From the IMG/VR virus record IMGVR_UViG_3300037515_000764: a DNA stretch of 20,000 bases, one strand, 5' to 3'. This stretch comes from an uncultured virus (IMG/VR IMGVR_UViG_3300037515_000764). Lineage: Duplodnaviria; Heunggongvirae; Uroviricota; Caudoviricetes. The notes under the pieces are model-generated. The model had not been told where the DNA came from, searched no databases, and saw only the letters and a program-made list of their open reading frames with translations. The translations under genes were made by a program, and so were the position numbers. Position 1 is the stretch's first letter; every line of letters begins with the position of its first letter. This document shows positions 3,326 through 20,000 of the stretch, piece by piece.

Positions 3326-3874
3326 TTATTTGATAATACTAACAGTTATGTTAGTCAAACCAGCAATACCGTTCTGTTGCAAATCACTATTTATTTCGTC
3401 TTGGACAACCTGAGTGAAATTACGTGCTTTCATACCTTTTCTTGTTTGTCCGGCACGTATCCACGTTGTAGCTTGAACTTCACCAGCAGGTTTAATATTA
3501 AAAGTACCAGAAGATGTTCTATCCGGTTTCCGAATATCAAAATAGGGTGAATTCTTTGTGAAAACAGTATCACTAGTGCCTTCGTCTAACCATTTATAAA
3601 GTCTATGAGGGTCTTTAGTTCCAGCAACCACAACGGCAAATTTAATTACGATTTCTATTTGTTTTCCGACAATTTTAAAGTCGAAATCTAAATCTAATTC
3701 TGGTTCGCCGAATTGTTCTTTATTTACTATTTGAAATATCTCTGAATAAAAACCCTCAAAACGACTTTTCAAGTTTCTTCTGATAGTTTCTTTTTGTTCT
3801 TCATTTAGAGAAGCAACAACAAATCTATCTTTTATTTTCCTAAAACTGCTAAGAATACTTTTATATTTAGCCAC
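3326..3874 (-). CDS. Putative tail completion/neck protein, HK97 gp10-like
   Basis: Basic 182 aa protein with LYKWLDEGT ... GMKARNF, resembling the Y-x-x-x-E-x-GT ... G-x-x-A-R-P-F pattern of gp10-like proteins; lies in the tail module. Confidence 0.5.
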   Translation of the reverse strand: MAKYKSILSSFRKIKDRFVVASLNEEQKETIRRNLKSRFEGFYSEIFQIVNKEQFGEPELDLDFDFKIVGKQIEIVIKFAVVVAGTKDPHRLYKWLDEGTSDTVFTKNSPYFDIRKPDRTSSGTFNIKPAGEVQATTWIRAGQTRKGMKARNFTQVVQDEINSDLQQNGIAGLTNITVSIIK

Positions 3875-4235
3875 TATTCTTAGCCTTTCTTACTTCTTCT
3901 TTTTGCAATTGCGCGTGTCTATCTAAAATTGATAACATATTCTTAATTTGATAAATAGTTACCCATTTAGCTTGTTCCTCTAAAGATAGACTATCCCAAA
4001 TTTCTGTTAAATTCATATCCAAAGCCGCCCTTAGAACAACATATTCAGTCGGGGATTTTGTTATTTTAACATCGCCAAAAAGTTTGGCTGTATATTCAGG
4101 GCTATGAGAGGCGAAATACATAACAGCATCGTAACGAGTTTTTAAATCATATTCGTCGTAAGCATACTCGACTGTTGGCTGTAAACGCCTCATCCAAATC
4201 ATCATCCAATCGTTAAGACTGAAAGTTGTTATCAT
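3867..4235 (-). CDS. Putative tail assembly chaperone, C-terminal (T-like) part
   Basis: Overlaps the upstream ORF by 23 nt and has no convincing SD. Helical, with LTEIWDSLSLEEQ resembling GT-type C-terminal domains; lies between tail tube and tape measure. Confidence 0.5.
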   Translation of the reverse strand: MITTFSLNDWMMIWMRRLQPTVEYAYDEYDLKTRYDAVMYFASHSPEYTAKLFGDVKITKSPTEYVVLRAALDMNLTEIWDSLSLEEQAKWVTIYQIKNMLSILDRHAQLQKEEVRKAKNSG

Positions 4236-4827
4236 CTACGCTATCAAGCGCCCCTGCTAAAATCTTGCTAAAAAGCTGAGAAGCTAATAACTGTATTTCA
4301 TTTCCAAATTGGGGGTTGTCATTGGTTAGTGTTTCAATAACTGCTAATTTGCGTTCAAGTGGGTGGAATCTATTTAAACTTGGAAGAGGGGGTAAAAGAT
4401 TTTCAATTCTTCGCGAATTAGCCTGTTTTCTATCCCAAAAATTATCAGGGATTTTAACTTCTATTTCTTCGTTTGTAAATTCTATACTTTTTGATTTAAA
4501 ATTAGAATTTAAAAGTGCAAGAATAAAAGCTTGACCTCGTGTTTCGCGTTCAAATCTTTCGTGTTCGTTTCTAACAATAGTTATTAAACCATCGACAAGT
4601 TCTTCTGTAGCTGCGGGGGATTCATCGGCTAAACCGTTCTCTTTGGCATAGGCCGCTAAAAGTATAACGTCTCGGTGTGCAGCATTAATGTTTGAGGTGA
4701 TATCTCTTGAGGAAAGTAGTGCATCTGAAAAATCTGTGAATAATTTTCCAGTCTTTTCATTCAGAGATAAGATTAATGACCCTCCTCCATCAAGTACCAA
4801 TTCCTTTTTGATATTTATGGAAGCCAT
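4213..4827 (-). CDS. Putative tail assembly chaperone (G-like)
   Basis: 204 aa ORF with SD AAGGAGA, directly downstream of the tail tube gene; assignment is by synteny. Confidence 0.5.
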   Translation of the reverse strand: MASINIKKELVLDGGGSLILSLNEKTGKLFTDFSDALLSSRDITSNINAAHRDVILLAAYAKENGLADESPAATEELVDGLITIVRNEHERFERETRGQAFILALLNSNFKSKSIEFTNEEIEVKIPDNFWDRKQANSRRIENLLPPLPSLNRFHPLERKLAVIETLTNDNPQFGNEIQLLASQLFSKILAGALDSVDDNNFQS

Positions 4828-6706: not shown

Positions 6707-7944
6707 TAGAAAGCGTAGCCTCCATCTATAATTCTTAAATTACGTATCGCATCCCAAGCCATAATAGCGCCTCTTCTAAAACCCCATCTATATGTGTTTT
6801 GCATATTGGAGGTCATAAAAACAGCCTCTTCGTTATTAACCATGCCAATATTTGGTTGTCTATAAAAGTGTAGCGGACTACATTTACAGGAACAATTTTC
6901 ACATGGTAATAAGGAAGCAGCCAACCAAGAAATTATTTGAGCACATCTAAAATTCATTCTACCGTTAGATTGTCTTGGACAACCTGCAATATAATTAATT
7001 GTTAATGTTTTATTTGTACAACATGAGCAGGTTCCACAACCACAACAATCAAATGTGTCTGTTTCTTCATCTAATGTCGCAATTCTGGTCTCAATTAAAC
7101 TTAATTTTTTGTTAATCGTATTTGCGCAAAAAGATTCTTGGGAAACAGTACAGCAGCCATTATCACATTGATATGAACCTGTATTAGTCGTATTTAAAGT
7201 TTTAGTGTAAATAGTAAAACGAGTTTCATAAAAATCTAAATCTGTTAGCTCTAAAGCACTCGGATTAGGTATTGTAACTTCATCTGCTTTTACAATTAAA
7301 AAAGATTTTCCACATATATTAATTTGGGTATCATCATTTATAAGTGTTGCCGTTATCGGCTTAACTTCCCATTCGAGACATTCATCATTCTGACAATTAT
7401 TTTGAACATCAGGGTGGTAAACTAAAACTATTTCATTAGGTAAAGTTCCACTTGGCAAATCGCCTACATCAATTACTAAATTAAATTCAGAAAGCGGGTC
7501 TATATCAACTGGCAATAAATTAACTTCATTTATTACTCTAGTATAAGTATAAGTTCCTAAACTCTGAATATATTTTCCGCCTAAAGCCACTCTATGAGCG
7601 CAGTTGTGACTATAATATTGTTTACTACTATAGCCACTTCCACGTAAGTAATCTCTAAGAATAAATTCTTCTGTAATTTCTCTTGGAGCGGGATAATAGC
7701 CCGTCTCTTCATAGAACATATGTTCTGCCTGATGAATGGCCCGTTGAATATCGTCTCTAGCTAACTCTTGATTTTGCCAAAGATATTCGTAAAAAACTTC
7801 ATCACATTCGTTATCATCAGAAAAGATTGGATTGGTATCTGAAGGGTCAACAGAACTTAATTGATGTAGTTGAAAAGGGTTTAAACCGATTATATGCGCA
7901 AATTCAGTTAATGTTAATAAATTGTCACAATAATGGTTAAGCAT
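6706..7944 (-). CDS. Cys-rich putative head-tail connector/adaptor
   Basis: N-terminal LTLTEFAHIIG ... IQRAIHQAEHMFYEETGY and later TINYIAG resemble gp6/gp15-type adaptors; lies after the major capsid gene; 22 Cys by hand count. Confidence 0.6.
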   Translation of the reverse strand: MLNHYCDNLLTLTEFAHIIGLNPFQLHQLSSVDPSDTNPIFSDDNECDEVFYEYLWQNQELARDDIQRAIHQAEHMFYEETGYYPAPREITEEFILRDYLRGSGYSSKQYYSHNCAHRVALGGKYIQSLGTYTYTRVINEVNLLPVDIDPLSEFNLVIDVGDLPSGTLPNEIVLVYHPDVQNNCQNDECLEWEVKPITATLINDDTQINICGKSFLIVKADEVTIPNPSALELTDLDFYETRFTIYTKTLNTTNTGSYQCDNGCCTVSQESFCANTINKKLSLIETRIATLDEETDTFDCCGCGTCSCCTNKTLTINYIAGCPRQSNGRMNFRCAQIISWLAASLLPCENCSCKCSPLHFYRQPNIGMVNNEEAVFMTSNMQNTYRWGFRRGAIMAWDAIRNLRIIDGGYAF

Positions 7945-8258
7945 TAATCTAAAGCTTTCTCTTTAAGTATTAGCGAAAGGCCAGCAATAGATGTGATAAA
8001 AAGAATTTTTTCGAAGATATTTTCACCAAGATAAAAGCCAAAGGGAATCGAAACCCAAACTGAATTGCAATAAAAACAGTTAAAGATTTCAGAAAATCCT
8101 TTGTATTTAACGACTGGTAAACCTGCTGGTGTTTCTGCACCTACTAAAATTCTAATCTTTTGAGACAGGTGTAAAAAACCATCTTCATAAACTAATAAGT
8201 AAGAAATTCTAAAAACAGCAAACGAACTAAGTATGACGTATAAGAAGTTCTCTAGCAT
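7944..8258 (-). CDS. DUF1360-like membrane protein with CxxC
   Basis: AVFRISYLLVYEDG ... EIFNCFYCNSVWVS matches the DUF1360 pattern; several hydrophobic segments. Confidence 0.75.
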   Translation of the reverse strand: MLENFLYVILSSFAVFRISYLLVYEDGFLHLSQKIRILVGAETPAGLPVVKYKGFSEIFNCFYCNSVWVSIPFGFYLGENIFEKILFITSIAGLSLILKEKALD

Positions 8259-8718
8259 TTTCTATTAACCTTTCTGCAGATTTTTTTGAAAGAAAATCAA
8301 AATTCTCTGCAAGAAATTCAACACCAACTTTAATAACATCTGTTAAACTTTTGATATTTTTTTCCGAAAGTGCAACGGCTCTAGTCTCTCCAATGCCATC
8401 TAGTTTAGAAAGTTCGTCTAAGATTTCACTAATATCTTTTTCATTTTCGAATTCTAATTGCTTTTCGGCGATTCTGAAAAAATAATAACGTTCATAATCT
8501 TCGTAAGAAACTTGTAATGTATCGCCTCGCGAAAAATATCCGTAAGCATGATTATTAGAACCAACTACTTGAACTCTACGGGTGTGATTCGGTTGGAAAA
8601 CTACAGTGACAGTTTCTTTATCTTCTAAACTAGTTAATATCTGTTCCTCTTTCTCTTTAGCTTTTCGCGCAGCTTCTTCTCTCATTTTTCTTTTTTGAGC
8701 ACATTTATTGCAACCCAT
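8227..8718 (-). CDS. Helix-hairpin-helix domain protein with N-terminal CxxC
   Basis: LSKLDGIGETRAVAL is an HhH motif; starts MGCNKC; immediately follows the major capsid gene. Confidence 0.7.
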   Translation of the reverse strand: MGCNKCAQKRKMREEAARKAKEKEEQILTSLEDKETVTVVFQPNHTRRVQVVGSNNHAYGYFSRGDTLQVSYEDYERYYFFRIAEKQLEFENEKDISEILDELSKLDGIGETRAVALSEKNIKSLTDVIKVGVEFLAENFDFLSKKSAERLIENARELLIRHT

Positions 8719-10634: not shown

Positions 10635-11207
10635 TTAATTCTCCTTTAAATTAACAAATGTCAGAGTGTTTGCGGCTCTTTCTAATGGTAGAATAGAAAT
10701 CTCCCATGAGATATAAGATTTAATAATATTTTTTTCTTTTCTTTGATATATCATCCCATGCGAAACCCCTAATGGTCTTGGATGTTGGAATAAAAATTTA
10801 ACAAAACTTTTAGAATCTTCGTTAATAATGCCAGAAGCAAAAGCGACATTGTTTTGTTCGTCGAAACCTAAAATGTCAGTAGTGCCGATTAAATCAATGT
10901 TCTTATTGTGGTGGAAAAGCAGAACAGGGTAGGGTACAATACCAGTATTAACGGCTTTGGCGAATTTGCTATGTGATTCGGCCGACAAGAATTCACCGTC
11001 TCTATCTAAAAAATTGTTAGAGAAAGCTAAGAATAGTCGCAAACTTCCGTCTGACATTTCTTTAAACATGGCGATATTTTCAGTAGCAGATATGGCGGCT
11101 ATTTGTCTAGCTGCACCTGCTCTAGTCATATGACAACCGAGACTTTCGTTAGAATTATCCTTAACTACACAGTATTCGTTTTCTCTTTTAATAATTTCAT
11201 ACGGCAT
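10635..11207 (-). CDS. Prohead maturation protease, HK97 family
   Basis: DRDGE, LLFHHN (catalytic His), GVSHG (catalytic Ser) and EISIL...AAN motifs; short N-terminal MPY...YCV...GCH module. Confidence 0.8.
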   Translation of the reverse strand: MPYEIIKRENEYCVVKDNSNESLGCHMTRAGAARQIAAISATENIAMFKEMSDGSLRLFLAFSNNFLDRDGEFLSAESHSKFAKAVNTGIVPYPVLLFHHNKNIDLIGTTDILGFDEQNNVAFASGIINEDSKSFVKFLFQHPRPLGVSHGMIYQRKEKNIIKSYISWEISILPLERAANTLTFVNLKEN

Positions 11208-11604
11208 TTTTTCCCTCTTTACACGATACTACCTTATCTAATTTTTCTTCGACGACGTCCAATCTTTTATAAACACTTCCTTCAAAAACATCTAATCTTC
11301 CATAAATATTTCCTATACTATCTTTTAAATCAGTAACAGCTTCAACCAAGCTTTTCGTAGCAGTTGTTAATTCTTTTTGGTCTGCTACTATTTGTTGACG
11401 TATTAAAGAATCGCTTATTTTTTCATTTGAAAGAATAACAAAAACTTCTTTGAACGCTTCGATTGAATTTTGCGCCGTTTCTTCTTTTTCTATTTGGACT
11501 ACTGTTCTTAAGCGCATCAATAGAAACATCCCTATTAGTATGTTTGGAAAAAACGCGGTAATACCTAGCAACTCTCCTGTATTTTCTGGCAGGAATTCAA
11601 ACAC
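11197..11604 (-). CDS. Single-TM coiled-coil membrane protein, holin-like
   Basis: GTG start with SD AAAGGAG; N-terminal hydrophobic helix (LLGITAFFPNILIGMFLLM) followed by a heptad coiled coil. Confidence 0.5.
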   Translation of the reverse strand: MFEFLPENTGELLGITAFFPNILIGMFLLMRLRTVVQIEKEETAQNSIEAFKEVFVILSNEKISDSLIRQQIVADQKELTTATKSLVEAVTDLKDSIGNIYGRLDVFEGSVYKRLDVVEEKLDKVVSCKEGKNAV

Positions 11605-13906: not shown

Positions 13907-14947
13907 TTAACTCCTTAAAAGTCTAAAATAATCTCTATCCCATTCAGGGAATAAAGAAATCATTTGGTTGAAGTCTGAGTTTTCAGGGGTAGGTCTAAAT
14001 TTAGCAATCGCGTAGGCATCATGAAAACCTTTGTCAAAATCAGAAACAGTATCAACATACCAATAAGAAGAAGCCGTAACGGTATTTCCAACCATTTGAC
14101 GCAAAATATAACCATCCATTTTTTCTGCTCGATTTGAACCTTCTAAATGAACACCATATTCGCCTATATATCTAGCTTTACCATAAAGGTTTGCAACCTG
14201 TAAATCAATTGCGCTTTCTTCTTCAAAAGCAAATTTATTATCAGGCAAACCAGCTTCCCAGTAGTTATGAACATTGGCTAAGTGCAAATAAGGCAATCTA
14301 CCAAAAACATCGTGTGCTACTTGTTCAACGGTAAAATATTCCGGCTTAAAATGTCGCGTATTTATCCATCCGACTGTTATGGGTGTTTTACCTTGACTGG
14401 CATCATAAGCTACTTTAGTCAAATACTCCCAAGTTTTCATAAATGCTTCGTAATTTTCTCGATTTAAATCAGCATGAACAATTGCAGGTTCATTCATTAA
14501 ATCTAAAACAACGTGATTATAATCTTTTAGAGCGAAAGCAACTTCTTTTAAGCGCGTTTCATATTCGCCACGCCAAGCTTCATTTCTATACCAGTCAATG
14601 TTTAAATGATTTAAATAGCTGGCATTATGATAGCTATTATTAACATCACAATGAAACCCAGACCGAATTGAATCATCAAAAACTACAACTAATTGAACAC
14701 CAATAGAGGCTGTAAAATCTGCCCATTGTCGCAATTTAGACATTATCTTAGGAAATTGTTTGCCGTCTTTATGAAGATACATTCTTACATGTTTTATTTC
14801 ATAAATTGGATAATCCCACAAAACAGCCATAATATCATAATCGTCAAAGTGCGGACTATCTTCAGACCACATACCTTCTCTTAAATTTGCCCCGTTCCCC
14901 GAAAATCCATCCAAAACCCACTGGTCGAAATACTGTTTTAATTGCAT
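13907..14947 (-). CDS. Clan GH-A (GH5-like) TIM-barrel glycoside hydrolase
   Basis: GAN (strand 1), HVRMY, LDLMNEP (acid/base Glu), NVHNY and YIGEYG (nucleophile Glu) occur in the expected order. Confidence 0.75.
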   Translation of the reverse strand: MQLKQYFDQWVLDGFSGNGANLREGMWSEDSPHFDDYDIMAVLWDYPIYEIKHVRMYLHKDGKQFPKIMSKLRQWADFTASIGVQLVVVFDDSIRSGFHCDVNNSYHNASYLNHLNIDWYRNEAWRGEYETRLKEVAFALKDYNHVVLDLMNEPAIVHADLNRENYEAFMKTWEYLTKVAYDASQGKTPITVGWINTRHFKPEYFTVEQVAHDVFGRLPYLHLANVHNYWEAGLPDNKFAFEEESAIDLQVANLYGKARYIGEYGVHLEGSNRAEKMDGYILRQMVGNTVTASSYWYVDTVSDFDKGFHDAYAIAKFRPTPENSDFNQMISLFPEWDRDYFRLLRS

Positions 14948-14949
14948 AT

Positions 14950-15019
14950 CACCAGTTAGTTGAATAGTTCCATCATTAACGGGTGGGGCTACAGTTTTTT
15001 TAGATAAACTATATCACCC
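14950..15019 (-). promoter_or_regulatory. Candidate -1 programmed ribosomal frameshift cassette
   Basis: SD-like GGGTGAT (15019-15013), 11 nt spacer, heptamer A AAA AAA (15001-14995), 9 nt spacer, imperfect hairpin (14985-14950); the -1 frame is open into the GH ORF. Confidence 0.55.
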
Positions 15020-15348
15020 GCTGTAGTTCTTTCGGCAACAAAACCTTGTTCTTCTGGTATATAACGCCAAACATATTCGTCATTTAAAACAGTATTTAAT
15101 CCGAGATAATCGAGCATAGCTTCATCAACTACAACTGAATAAACACGTTTAACAGCACCAAAACTCCAAACTTTAGGCGGATTAAATAGTTGCGATAAAT
15201 TAGGAAATGGTCGAATGTTCATATCAGAACGAACAGTTTTCATTTCTATTTCTTCGTATTCTGTAGGTGGAACTTGTTGACCACTTTCAACAGAATGTCT
15301 GTAAATTTCTACACCGTCTACATACAAAACGGTTTCGTGTAATGGCAT
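14989..15348 (-). CDS. SH3b-like (putative cell-surface binding) domain protein
   Basis: SD AAAGGAG; MNIRPFP ... VWRYI...GFVAE fits the bacterial SH3 pattern (N-x-R-x-x-P ... W ... G-W/F-V). Confidence 0.55.
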   Translation of the reverse strand: MPLHETVLYVDGVEIYRHSVESGQQVPPTEYEEIEMKTVRSDMNIRPFPNLSQLFNPPKVWSFGAVKRVYSVVVDEAMLDYLGLNTVLNDEYVWRYIPEEQGFVAERTTAGDIVYLKKL

Positions 15349-15361
15349 TTAATCTCCTTTT

Positions 15362-15811
15362 TTATTTTTGGATATAACGACTCAAGCTGAACTGTGCTGA
15401 AGACAAAGTAATCGTTTGAGCGGGTGCATCAGAAACGGCATATAATTCAACAGTATCATCTGCTTCCAATGTAAGAATGCCGCTAATCGAAACATGAACT
15501 TCATCAGGTGTAGCATTAAATGTCGCATCGGCTTGATAATTTTGGTCATGTGTCGCACCATTAACATAAACGTAAAAATTCCAAACACTACTTGCCGTAT
15601 CAGTCGTTGCGCTAAAATCAACTTCTACGAAATAATCGCCACGCAGAGCAACTGTAATATCTGATGTTGCCAATGCCGGAACTACGTTTTCTGTAAAAGG
15701 CATCAACGTATCAAATTGGTCTATCAATGTTTCAGTTGTTCCAATCGCTTGCCCTGTAGAATTGCTATCAATGGCTAAACCACCGTACTCTTGGTTAACT
15801 CTAATTGACAT
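15362..15811 (-). CDS. C1q/TNF/BclA-C-like jelly-roll protein, putative virion decoration
   Basis: ITVALRGDYFVEVDFS ... VSISGILTLEADDTVELYA ... FSLSR is typical of C1q-like domains; SD AGAGGAG. Confidence 0.65.
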   Translation of the reverse strand: MSIRVNQEYGGLAIDSNSTGQAIGTTETLIDQFDTLMPFTENVVPALATSDITVALRGDYFVEVDFSATTDTASSVWNFYVYVNGATHDQNYQADATFNATPDEVHVSISGILTLEADDTVELYAVSDAPAQTITLSSAQFSLSRYIQK

Positions 15812-17493: not shown

Positions 17494-18753
17494 CTAAAAG
17501 TTTGTTAAATAGTCTGCTAAGTTTACTGAAGATAGTCCCATAAATTTATCAATAGCTTCAACATAATAGCGCAATGTATTCATAGAGTGGTCATCATCGG
17601 GCGAAGGAATTTCAACTGTTTTTCTATTTTTCTTAACTTTAATCCAAACAAAGCTTCCAAATTCTTCAAAAATAGATGTTGGTTTATGCTTTTTGCGAAG
17701 TTCTTTATCGACATATTGCTGACAATTTTCAAAGAAGAATATTTCGTCTCTTTCAAAACGCGCATTAACTTTTTCAATTCCGCCGTCTATATCTTTTTTG
17801 GCTAGAATAGTCGGATAGCCGTTTTGTGCCAAATGCGCTCTTACTTGAGCATCATGGTCACAAATAAATTCGCGTATCGGATAATCTTCGCAAATATCAT
17901 CTAAGACTTCTACTAGACCATCGGGCGATAATTGACTTTGATAATGTTCTTTAATTAGATAAGCTATATCTTCTTCGTTTTTTCCCCAAAGATGTACAAC
18001 TGTAGGAGCCTTGTAACCAATATCTATAACAACGCGGTATTCCCACCCCTTTTGCTGTTCGCGGGGAATTGGTTCGACAACATGTTTAGCAAAATCGAAT
18101 GGATGAACGGAACCAGTATCAGAAACCCACATACCGTCATATAAACGTTGCTTTTTAGTACCCGAAAGACTTTTTAGGTCGTTTAAGTAGCTTTCCGGCA
18201 AAAACGTATTAACGTCAGGCAAAGGCTTATAAAGTTTGCCGATTTGTTTAAGAATTGTTTCTTGATAAATCCAATGTGAAGAAGAGCGAGGGTTGCAATT
18301 TAATATTATTTGTCTAAAATCTGCTGCTGTACCGCGCATACCCGCTTTGATATGTTCATATTGAGAAAAGTCAAATTCCGTCGCTTCTTCCATTAAAGCC
18401 AAATCAATAGAAAGAGAATATAATTTTTCGTAGGAAGCAGGGTCATTAAAACCTGAATAAAATAAACGAGAACCATTTGTATATTTAAAAGCGGATTCAA
18501 ATTTGTTATGTTTTACAAAAGGATTATCAAAACCAACAAATTCTTCTAAAACCGGTAAATTTGAATTCAGCAGAGAACTTCTTGTTTTACGAACTAATAC
18601 GCAAAAGGCATTAGGATTCTTAAGACAGAACAAATGTAATTTTAAAAGACCCGCCCAAGATTTTCCAGTACCCTTACCGGAAGCAGCTATAATTACTGGA
18701 CTTTTATTAGATATATAATCTTTCTGCCACTCTAGGAGTTCAATCTCTTTCAT
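17494..18753 (-). CDS. terL: Terminase large subunit, PBSX/SPP1-like
   Basis: Walker A SGKGTGKS, Walker B LALMEEA, motif III LNCNP, RNase H motifs VIDIG, ICD and DHSMNTLRY. Start moved from 18786 to ATG 18753 because of SD AAAGGAG. Confidence 0.92.
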   Translation of the reverse strand: MKEIELLEWQKDYISNKSPVIIAASGKGTGKSWAGLLKLHLFCLKNPNAFCVLVRKTRSSLLNSNLPVLEEFVGFDNPFVKHNKFESAFKYTNGSRLFYSGFNDPASYEKLYSLSIDLALMEEATEFDFSQYEHIKAGMRGTAADFRQIILNCNPRSSSHWIYQETILKQIGKLYKPLPDVNTFLPESYLNDLKSLSGTKKQRLYDGMWVSDTGSVHPFDFAKHVVEPIPREQQKGWEYRVVIDIGYKAPTVVHLWGKNEEDIAYLIKEHYQSQLSPDGLVEVLDDICEDYPIREFICDHDAQVRAHLAQNGYPTILAKKDIDGGIEKVNARFERDEIFFFENCQQYVDKELRKKHKPTSIFEEFGSFVWIKVKKNRKTVEIPSPDDDHSMNTLRYYVEAIDKFMGLSSVNLADYLTNF

Positions 18754-18769
18754 TATTCTCCTTTCAGGC

Positions 18770-18797
18770 AACAAAAAAGCTACCAATTAAGGTAGCT
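18770..18797 (-). terminator. Intrinsic terminator upstream of terL
   Basis: Minus strand AGCTACC-TTAATT-GGTAGCT followed by TTTTTGTT. Confidence 0.7.
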
Positions 18798-18837: not shown

Positions 18838-19062
18838 CTAATTGCCAAGTTGTTTTGTCATTTCTTCTATTTGTATTTCAGTAATCTGTTTCATAACTTG
18901 GATGAAACTTTCGACTTCTTTTTTATCTTCTAAGCGAGAAAAATTGGTTTTCTGTTCTTCTTGTTCTAAAATATTCATTTCGTCGTCATAAAAGGTGGCT
19001 ATTACGTACCAATAACCATCTTTAAAGACGGCACTAAAATCCATCTTAGTTGCGTTATCCAT
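18838..19062 (-). CDS. Small acidic hypothetical protein
   Basis: 74 aa, SD GGAGG, overlaps the upstream stop. Confidence 0.75.
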   Translation of the reverse strand: MDNATKMDFSAVFKDGYWYVIATFYDDEMNILEQEEQKTNFSRLEDKKEVESFIQVMKQITEIQIEEMTKQLGN

Positions 19063-19537
19063 TGTTAATAGCCTCCGTATAATTTATTGGCAAATATGGA
19101 TTATCATCAGCAGTAAAATCTGTTATAGAAATATCTTCGTTGATAATAACAGAAATTTCAACATCTTTTTCGCCGAGAGCAGATAAGTCTGTAAGATTAA
19201 ATGTGTCTAAGTCGGAAAATATATAATCATAACGAATTGCTGAAGGTATACTATAACCGGTTTGCATTTTAATAACCGAACCATTTGCAAATACAAATTG
19301 GCTTGTACTCTTGTAGAAACTGTTTTCTAAAGTTATTAAAAATCTTATTATATTGAAGTGATAATTGGAATGTAGATTTCTAACCAAAACGAGAACTCTT
19401 GAATTTTTATTTTCTTCGGCAAATTTAACAGCCTTCATTAAACCTGCGACAGTTTTACCAGAAGATACGTCACCAGCAATAAGATTTACTCTTTTTGTCT
19501 GATTTAGAAATTCCTGTTGCTTTTTAGTCGGTATCAA
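19055..19537 (-). CDS. Stand-alone degenerate terminase large subunit ATPase domain
   Basis: Likely TTG start at 19537 with SD AAGGAG (19549-19544), 160 aa. PTKKQQEFL, Walker A GDVSSGKT, VLVLVR, FANGSVI, YDYIFSDL and terminal DNPYLP..Y are collinear with the terL N-terminal half. Confidence 0.75.
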   Translation of the reverse strand: MIPTKKQQEFLNQTKRVNLIAGDVSSGKTVAGLMKAVKFAEENKNSRVLVLVRNLHSNYHFNIIRFLITLENSFYKSTSQFVFANGSVIKMQTGYSIPSAIRYDYIFSDLDTFNLTDLSALGEKDVEISVIINEDISITDFTADDNPYLPINYTEAINNG

Positions 19538-20000
19538 TGATTTCTCCTTCAACAGTATTGCCATCATCCAACCAAAGATTTTCAACGTCTAGGTTTTTGA
19601 AGGCCAATGTAATATCAAGTTTTCTTTGTTCGGTAACTGTTTTGAAATCCCCGACCTCATGCCCTATTTGCTTTAATGTATCCATATAAACTTTAGAATT
19701 TACTAGACGACCATTTCTGTCTGTTGATAAATGCAAACCTTTATTTTCTATTTCATCTACGTAGCGCATTAGTTTAGCAGCGCGTTTTTCTTTTTCCCAC
19801 AAATCACCGTCTTCAATCTCAATTTCTTTTTCAGTGATTTTCTTTTTTATTTCATCAGAGTATTTTTTTCTGTAGTAGTTAACTAGAGAACGTTCAACTT
19901 GAAAGCCCTGTTTATCGCAAATTTCAACACACTCAGTATTTGAATAACCAGAGACTAAAAGTTCAATTAGATACTCTTTTTCAAAGTCCTCTAATTTCAT
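19524..20000 (-). CDS. Putative terminase small subunit (DUF2280-like)
   Basis: N-terminal HTH-like segment (GYSNTECVEIC...VERSLVNYYRK) and LKQIGHEVGD resembling DUF2280; lies upstream of terL. The ATG is at the window edge, so the start is unverified. Confidence 0.65.
   Translation of the reverse strand: MKLEDFEKEYLIELLVSGYSNTECVEICDKQGFQVERSLVNYYRKKYSDEIKKKITEKEIEIEDGDLWEKEKRAAKLMRYVDEIENKGLHLSTDRNGRLVNSKVYMDTLKQIGHEVGDFKTVTEQRKLDITLAFKNLDVENLWLDDGNTVEGEIIDTD

Follow-up and report, generated by a model that had tools for sequence, protein, structure and literature searches.

Genomic context of the ORF1-ORF2 locus

The 20-kb window (the whole stretch of DNA that was analysed) represents the head-and-tail region of a tailed phage, in which all genes are on the minus strand. 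The terminase gene was recognised by database matches and the tape measure gene by a match with TIGR01760, and the roles of the portal, protease and capsid genes, likewise on the minus strand, were assigned from gene order and shared synteny. An accessory-gene block, with the portal gene on one side and the protease gene on the other, contains a BclA_C-like gene, ORF1 (119 aa), ORF2 (346 aa), an Fn3/CHB_HEX_C-like gene, a LamG gene and small membrane proteins, and the protein collection places both ORF1 and ORF2 on a 72.5-kb contig. The 20 runs listed as containing the phage DNA are sediment and soil metagenomes, with no RNA run among them, and contigs of 4 of these 20 runs were compared. The features of the ORF1-ORF2 region, in the direction of transcription, are:

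15353..15361, minus strand: ORF1 start SD AAGGAG (-8.9 kcal/mol), immediately past the stop codon of the BclA_C-like gene located upstream
14989..15348, minus strand: ORF1, frame-0 product of 119 aa and 13.8 kDa, with a predicted N-terminal beta-hairpin, Pro-rich spacer and SH3b-type domain
14978..15022, minus strand: enclosing hairpin of 16 pairs with the A-run inside, whose 5′ arm is formed by the SD-like element and whose 3′ arm is formed by the beginning of the downstream stem
15013..15019, minus strand: SD-like GGGTGAT, 11 nt upstream of the heptamer, with no ATG, GTG or TTG after it at initiation distance
14995..15001, minus strand: in-phase slippery heptamer A_AAA_AAA of the X XXY YYZ type (Lys117-Lys118), at the frame break
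14989..14991, minus strand: frame-0 stop TAG, one sense codon past the heptamer
14948..14995, minus strand: bridge of 16 codons in the -1 frame, a Pro-rich linker plus the family motif TIQLTG preceding the catalytic domain
14950..14985, minus strand: earlier-proposed downstream stem, imperfect, 9 nt downstream of the heptamer, a weak candidate stimulator
13907..14947, minus strand: ORF2, 346 aa from an internal Met, a predicted clan GH-A/GH5-type TIM barrel with no SD at usable spacing

Signals at the frame junction

ORF1 ends with CTA AAA AAA CTG TAG, the heptamer being in phase at 15001-14995 exactly as the first-pass annotation had it, and a -1 shift at this site leads without a stop into the glycoside hydrolase (GH) frame, giving the 480-aa fusion that had been proposed (118+16+346 residues). 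Upstream of its ATG, the GH frame stays open for a further 22 codons, up to 15013, which is the longest such extension among 24 starts (the next being 14 codons), and of the 51 in-phase X XXY YYZ heptamers that were listed, from 25 genes, the one at 15001-14995 alone opens a long -1 frame (364 codons, the next being 40). The earlier caveat that A7 runs occur elsewhere was justified, with six such runs on the minus strand and no A8. One extra A restores the frame, and relatives such as P0010 also have Leu-Lys-Lys at this place. Since loss of one base from an ancestral A8 creates the heptamer automatically, the heptamer alone is no evidence of selection, and the case for recoding rests instead on the findings that the break persists, that ORF2 is under selection, that the bridge is preserved and that the GH ATG lacks an SD.

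The SD-like GGGTGAT is located where it had been described, and it reaches -10.7 kcal/mol when paired with an extended 16S tail, a value exceeded or equalled at no more than 0.9% of 4772 internal codon positions; with the core 16S tail only, it is in the top 10%. Stimulatory SD sequences are described as acting at 9–14 nt (PMC5009743), a range that includes the 11 nt found here, but GGGTGAT does not occur among the five experimentally proven stimulatory SD motifs given in PMC4066793. The ATG of the GH frame, for which the absence of a properly spaced SD had already been proposed, has an SD pairing of only -2.4 kcal/mol, compared to -8.3 kcal/mol or better in 6/8 starts located >10 nt from the previous stop. 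The terminase TTG, a doubtful start with a 51-nt gap, gives +1.3 kcal/mol; most of the remaining SD-poor starts abut the preceding stop or overlap with it, whereas the gap before the GH ATG is 41 nt. Structural occlusion of the GH ATG was dropped as an argument, as its accessibility (0.41 unpaired) is within the range of the other starts.

The downstream hairpin of the first-pass annotation does start 9 nt downstream of the heptamer, but at -7.4 kcal/mol (z -1.4) it is matched by 17/200 shuffled sequences, misses the threshold of ≥7.6 kcal/mol published for stems 4–10 nt downstream (PMC4066793, which used another version of RNAfold), and has approximately 0.21 kcal/mol/nt versus 0.45 in the IS3 elements covered there. 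A 3′ stimulatory stem is, from what has been published, not present in every prokaryotic -1 frameshift case. The proposed stem also shares an arm with the stronger enclosing hairpin (-17 kcal/mol, z -4.45, 0/200 shuffles), and as the arms of the latter are shared with both the SD-like element and the downstream stem, the three states are mutually exclusive. The enclosing hairpin is notable but not decisive, since z ≤ -4.5 is reached in 8 regions of the 20-kb strand and the segment for folding was picked after the fact. This hairpin has to be open while the heptamer is occupied by a ribosome. Speculatively, it could slow ribosomes or make the internal SD inaccessible to free 30S subunits. No Rfam match was obtained, and a promoter scan gave nothing above chance.

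Two further properties of this region were noted. The pairing positions of the enclosing hairpin include less common codons (GCG, 13% of Ala; CCC, 16% of Pro), a post hoc observation, and on the plus strand at 14965-15001 the complement of A7 forms the T-tract of a terminator-like antisense stem, one of 3 such sites where 1.4 are expected.

ORF1 resembles SH3b domains and ORF2 is predicted to be a GH5-type barrel

Neither ORF1 nor ORF2 had a direct match in Pfam, PHROG or NCBIfam, and the SH3-like and GH identities given previously are supported through relatives. ORF1 aligns with residues 1–113 of the in-frame homolog P0012 (E 2.8e-22 in a search of 45 sequences), which was the best of the 5/45 homologs whose N-termini it matched above the inclusion threshold. 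A family SH3 profile built without the five closest homologs of ORF1 matched residues of about 33–117 (E 9e-10, Z=1), the alignment named A8 matched the solved SH3b domains 9kz1_A and 5d74_A (an amidase and a phage lysin; E 6e-4 and 2.5e-3), and the homologs match PF08239. As judged from these relatives, ORF1 is a beta-hairpin (about residues 1–21) followed by a bacterial SH3b domain (about residues 33–117), with the strand layout taken from the model of P0012. An Atlas search with ORF1 named no family, its single-sequence fold was unusable (pLDDT 34), and a complex prediction with four copies of ORF1 scored 0.02, which was weighed in neither direction. No signal or membrane segment was seen in ORF1 or ORF2.

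For ORF2, the Atlas model matched GH5 clusters with TM scores of 0.75–0.82, and the best matches of the P0012 model (pLDDT 91, pTM 0.76) were GH5 mannanases (E 3e-14, 11–16% identity). ORF2 itself lacks a Pfam match (PF00150), while P0010, P0012 and P0015 are above the PF00150 cut-off. The predicted catalytic residues are the acid-base Glu153 (N152-E153, in NEP) and the nucleophile Glu263, with both glutamates invariant in 32 aligned rows. On the basis of these models, ORF2 is a clan GH-A, GH5-type barrel with predicted catalytic glutamates. The solved GH5 subfamily-7-like mannanases (PDB 3ziz, 1qnp, 3pz9) have the same TIM barrel and both catalytic glutamates, but are distant in sequence (11–16% identity).

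ORF1 and ORF2 correspond to two halves of one ancestral gene

When 1.84 billion representatives were searched, 46 matches were obtained, and after the strain variant P0003 the best six were proteins of 463–553 aa in which the GH match begins at residue 136–213. The ten nearest full-length relatives are all in-frame SH3b-GH5 proteins, and the read-through product aligns in one piece with P0012 (1–478 versus 1–463, 37.7%, E 3e-91) and with P0059 (1–468 versus 1–466). In a tree of 47 GH domains (midpoint root, with P0016 and P0033 left out), the 3 rows of the window lineage are enclosed by four nested starred branches together with 10 relatives, all of which have SH3 in frame. As the window lineage nests among in-frame relatives, the fused state is ancestral and the break derived. 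Members of the wider family with the GH domain first or alone constitute 14/47 tree rows, which makes a free GH structurally plausible.

The continuation of the -1 frame, previously described as linker-like, is indeed Pro-rich, and it keeps the family motif: TIQLTG-x-M-x-L of the bridge matches TLQLTG in P0011, TVQLAG in P0022 and similar motifs elsewhere, and the Gly of the bridge is common to 23/25 full-length homologs. When scored with a profile from 22 homologs, TIQLTG ranked among the best 4 of the window's 39,960 six-frame hexapeptides, with a mild circularity in this rank because the alignment behind the profile columns included the query. The bridge is thus homologous coding sequence, and the ATG of ORF2 therefore represents an internal Met of the ancestral protein. 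Together, these comparisons give strong support to ORF1 and ORF2 being the halves of one ancestral gene and to the GH ATG not being a real start.

Scans of viral contigs, metagenome contigs and genomes for the DNA of related or diverged split loci yielded none that was confirmed, and a 27-residue match found in the scan for the DNA of relatives (L001) was spurious. Searches by tblastn with the GH and the capsid protein did not give a match in GenBank phages.

The frame break is real and both halves are maintained

The break is real and not an assembly error. A separate assembly of the run from which the window may derive agrees with it without any difference across 2301 nt, and the junction is crossed by record 6 of run X2 (14636-15362, 727 nt) with 11 substitutions and 0 gaps, and by record 19 of run X6 (14878-15051, 174 nt) with 0 substitutions and 0 gaps. 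The heptamer is present without a gap in record 1 of run X1 and in the X2 and X6 records, the latter two runs being from other studies by their codes, and in run X3 the junction is covered at high summed depth. Of the 119 residues of ORF1, 1 is different in protein P0008 and 9 are different in P0009, but both proteins have the same terminal residues as ORF1, and three separate cluster members stop at the same place. A true A8 with a single 480-aa gene, which had been named as the outcome that would undo the frameshift proposal, could be expected at a homopolymer in a family with fused relatives, but the agreement between runs and between cluster members leaves it a negligible probability. The split with its heptamer is thus kept in close strains, as had been asked of homologous loci, but the 10 nearest full-length relatives lack it. 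Among proteins of 190–606 aa there was no near-identical fused protein, and longer forms of ORF1 were not found either, the latter being weak evidence. Since contigs drop rare alleles, a minority A8 allele would be compatible with the contig data.

Selection was assessed from the 40 listed of the 230 substitution rows, of which 39 were classified and one, intergenic, was left out. In these listed rows, all strain differences in ORF1 (6/6) and all those in ORF2 outside an indel patch (13/13) were synonymous, with about 0.2 expected without selection. The 12 indel rows listed are all at 13952-13985, and a further 4 indel rows are likely to be in the same patch, to judge from records 3 and 17, in which the gaps total 17 each, with 9 listed for each. 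Six substitution rows in this patch, 4 of them non-synonymous, were set aside; it holds a real five-residue indel that is also found in P0003. None of the contigs with differences in ORF2 extends across the junction; as the one junction contig listed in run X2 is split, we infer that these contigs come from split genomes. The substitution pattern in the listed rows shows that both halves are kept under purifying selection, and a dead pseudogene was ruled out on the same grounds, with the differences synonymous in both halves. No stop or frameshift was present elsewhere in the GH frame in five cluster members or in the listed variants. The five-residue indel (13952-13990), near the C-terminus of the GH domain, separates strains with 346 and 341 aa and keeps the frame.

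Host and predicted function

The host is probably a member of the Phototrophicaceae, within the Chloroflexota, a phylum that contains Roseiflexus. The SH3b-GH5 family is present in 40/261 Phototrophicaceae genomes, often joined to SH3b and M23 peptidase domains, and searches with the family alignment named A7 did not find it in a class-wide sample of 400 other genomes, where the single match among 401 was the centre itself. In 2 Phototrophicaceae genomes, prophage-like contigs share portal, protease, adaptor and capsid or terminase genes with the phage at 22–29% identity, and the fetched stretches of these two related contigs did not contain an SH3-GH5 gene. In both prophage-like contigs that are distant kin of the phage (L040-L042; G017:C629, G085:C164), the capsid gene is closely followed by very large ORFs, of 1190 and 918 aa.

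Four chromosomal homologs have ordinary genes as neighbours, and many relatives have added an M23 peptidase and further SH3b domains. As the family is found in Phototrophicaceae, has homologs among ordinary genes and adds M23 and SH3b domains, its distribution points to the ORF1-ORF2 read-through product being a cell-envelope glycan hydrolase. An endolysin-like attack on the envelope of the Phototrophicaceae host is the somewhat favoured role, given that there is no signal peptide and that a small membrane protein is encoded nearby (11197-11604). A virion-borne glycanase is a less likely role for the enzyme, although it too would suit a gene that has BclA_C and LamG genes as neighbours within the head region. 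One Phototrophicaceae homolog (G121:C60:22366-23341) has two matches approximately 20 nt apart within the GH domain, and is probably a broken gene or an assembly error.

Recoding at the A-run and alternative explanations

Recoding at the A-run, be it ribosomal or transcriptional, is the likely explanation for the locus, and within it we give -1 ribosomal frameshifting, yielding an excess of the SH3b module and a minority of the fusion, a probability of roughly 0.55. The ancestral gene would have encoded a beta-hairpin, an SH3b binding domain, a linker and a GH5 catalytic barrel, and the phage lineage would have lost one A from A8 at the SH3b/linker border and then kept the break. Ribosomes would start at the strong ORF1 SD, and most would reach the TAG and release the 13.8-kDa SH3b module, while in a minority, two lysyl-tRNAs on A_AAA_AAA would slip back by one base with the 16S tail paired to GGGTGAT 11 nt upstream, and these ribosomes would produce the 480-aa, 55.9-kDa SH3b-GH5 enzyme. 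Our guess for the slippage efficiency is 5–20%, and the short product would be useful, not just tolerated. Because the binding domain is N-terminal, a free binding domain via an internal start is impossible here, and a frameshift past a stop can give it. In a more elaborate and rather doubtful version, the SD-stimulated shift would be gated by the enclosing hairpin, which would alternately hide the SD and the slippery run, and many SH3b and few SH3b-GH5 molecules would be co-assembled via the shared beta-hairpin into a multivalent lysin, a recoding-based mirror image of CTP1L/Lys170 whose GH5-type domain would act on an uncharacterised Chloroflexota envelope glycan.

The earlier proposal of one SH3-GH gene read through A7 is thus upheld for its single-gene origin, and the slippage would more probably be ribosomal than transcriptional. 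RNA polymerase stuttering, by which some transcripts would contain A8 and be read in frame into the same two products, suits a site that is a pure homopolymer with a weak ribosomal 3′ stimulator, and there is precedent in cassettes with A7, A9 and A11, which shift more with run length (PMC3711429), and in a Roseiflexus IS630 element that uses it (PMC5009743). Efficient context-free slippage has, however, been demonstrated at runs of 9 in published work, no strong nascent hairpin is located directly 5′ of the run (the strong one encloses it), and the heptamer is in phase with a correctly spaced SD-like element, which together make stuttering an unlikely source of the fusion. Marginally less unlikely is gene fission, with the GH starting alone at 14947, either by re-initiation after the TAG 41 nt upstream or without an SD, and two separate proteins as the outcome. 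The ATG is located just before the first catalytic-domain strand in the homolog model, some in-frame homologs have a Met at or near this position, GH-only relatives exist, gene callers chose the 14947 start in two strains, and the window has other SD-poor starts. Those starts mostly do not have a gap like the 41 nt over which the GH ATG must manage with its weak pairing, and an untranslated bridge should decay, yet the family motif is kept; a rough and assumption-laden estimate puts the chance of six codons staying unchanged at 1–4% if the split is as old as the variant with 28 differences.

A lesion at the DNA level would be either a recent one-base loss that swept the population or a phase switch between A7 and A8, and the GH would then be made only from rare A8 genomes, or not be made. 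Homopolymers are particularly prone to deletions, the deeper relatives all have the gene in frame, a minority A8 allele could go unseen in contigs, and the synonymous differences could predate a sweep. We nevertheless consider this improbable, as the break is common to strains that differ at 9/119 residues, neither a near-identical fused protein nor a longer ORF1 was found in the searches above, and the GH frame of the five cluster members and listed variants is otherwise intact. Against -1 frameshifting itself stands the restriction of the split to one lineage, the 10 nearest relatives being without it, and A_AAA_AAA has been described as less shift-prone than A_AAA_AAG in E. coli.

Comparison with known recoding systems and two-product lysins

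The likeness to dnaX and IS911 noted in the first-pass annotation holds for the in-phase heptamer and the conserved coding sequence in the -1 frame, but not for the downstream stem, which misses the threshold. In E. coli dnaX and the IS911/IS3 family, as described in PMC5009743 and PMC4066793, an in-phase A-rich heptamer with an SD-like sequence 9–14 nt upstream gives a short product and a -1 fusion (OrfA/OrfAB), as would be the case here, and A_AAA_AAA and A_AAA_AAG together represent 72% of the IS1/IS3 heptamers (PMC4066793). The phage gene differs in having a heptamer that ends in A and not G, an SD of the extended type, a stem below the threshold, an enclosing hairpin and a glycoside hydrolase as its product. 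In the magnesium chelatase frameshift cluster (PMC3711429), a poly-A -1 site is located between two annotated ORFs that are fused in other species, and a 7-A cassette of this gene family gave 10% shifting in E. coli; this is a chromosomal enzyme with the site kept across six genera, whereas the phage split is in one lineage.

With respect to products, the closest parallels are the two-polypeptide endolysins CTP1L, CD27L, CS74L, Lys170 and LysIME-EF1 (PMC9430671, PMC4777826), in which one gene yields the full enzyme and a free wall-binding domain, as proposed here. In the CTP1L/Lys170 type, as reported there, this is achieved by an in-frame internal start before a binding domain located at the C-terminus, and catalysis is of the amidase, CHAP or GH25 type, whereas the phage gene has an N-terminal binding domain, a frame break and predicted GH5-type catalysis, with lysis and co-assembly being putative. 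Membership of the internal-start group was ruled out, since in the phage gene the binding domain comes first and is encoded in another frame than the catalytic domain. The main text of PMC9430671 nowhere uses the word frameshift, and no frameshift-built lysin was reported in the titles and abstracts searched, with most subscription journals being beyond the reach of that search; a genome announcement mentions putative frameshifts near, but not in, endolysin genes (PMC9671017).

The structural extensions of T3 gp10, A2 and A118/A500 and the lambda gpG/gpGT proteins (PMC5009743) also combine an abundant short product with a minority of an extended one, made in- and out-of-frame in related phages. 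As described there, these add a small binding domain to a structural protein, while here a catalytic part of 362 residues would be added to a binding module. Among cellular proteins, the chromosomal SH3b/M23-GH5 family of the Phototrophicaceae resembles the phage enzyme.

If frameshifting does operate here, a wall-degrading enzyme would join the short list of frameshift-expressed phage genes (tail chaperones, capsid and tail extensions), and a second route would exist by which one gene supplies a free binding domain and the full enzyme. The locus would also be a snapshot of the birth of recoding, with a homopolymer deletion at a domain border that became fixed in one lineage while near relatives are in frame. 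The SH3b-GH5 family in addition points to an unstudied envelope glycan of the Phototrophicaceae and to the way in which phages breach it.

Other features of the window

Contigs of runs X2, X3 and X6 diverge at 15360-15363, exactly between the BclA_C-like gene and ORF1, with loose ends of up to 255 nt or more; related strains thus appear to have extra or different DNA there, which would make it a gene-exchange site. The start of the terminase gene (18753-18786) is uncertain, as the listed TTG lacks an SD and an ATG is present 11 codons downstream. Upstream of the full terminase gene, a 176-aa ORF (19055-19585) resembles only the ATPase start of the terminase large subunit (phrog_979, E 2e-6), and may be a paralog fragment. 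The two genes at the usual tail-chaperone position (3867-4827) have no -1 frameshift route, with a stop right before the ATG of the second gene and no usable heptamer. Small proteins with an N-terminal hydrophobic segment, encoded at 11197-11604 and 7944-8258, are holin candidates, the second being a DUF1360 member, and a helix-hairpin-helix protein (PF14520) is encoded at 8227-8718, directly after the putative capsid gene.
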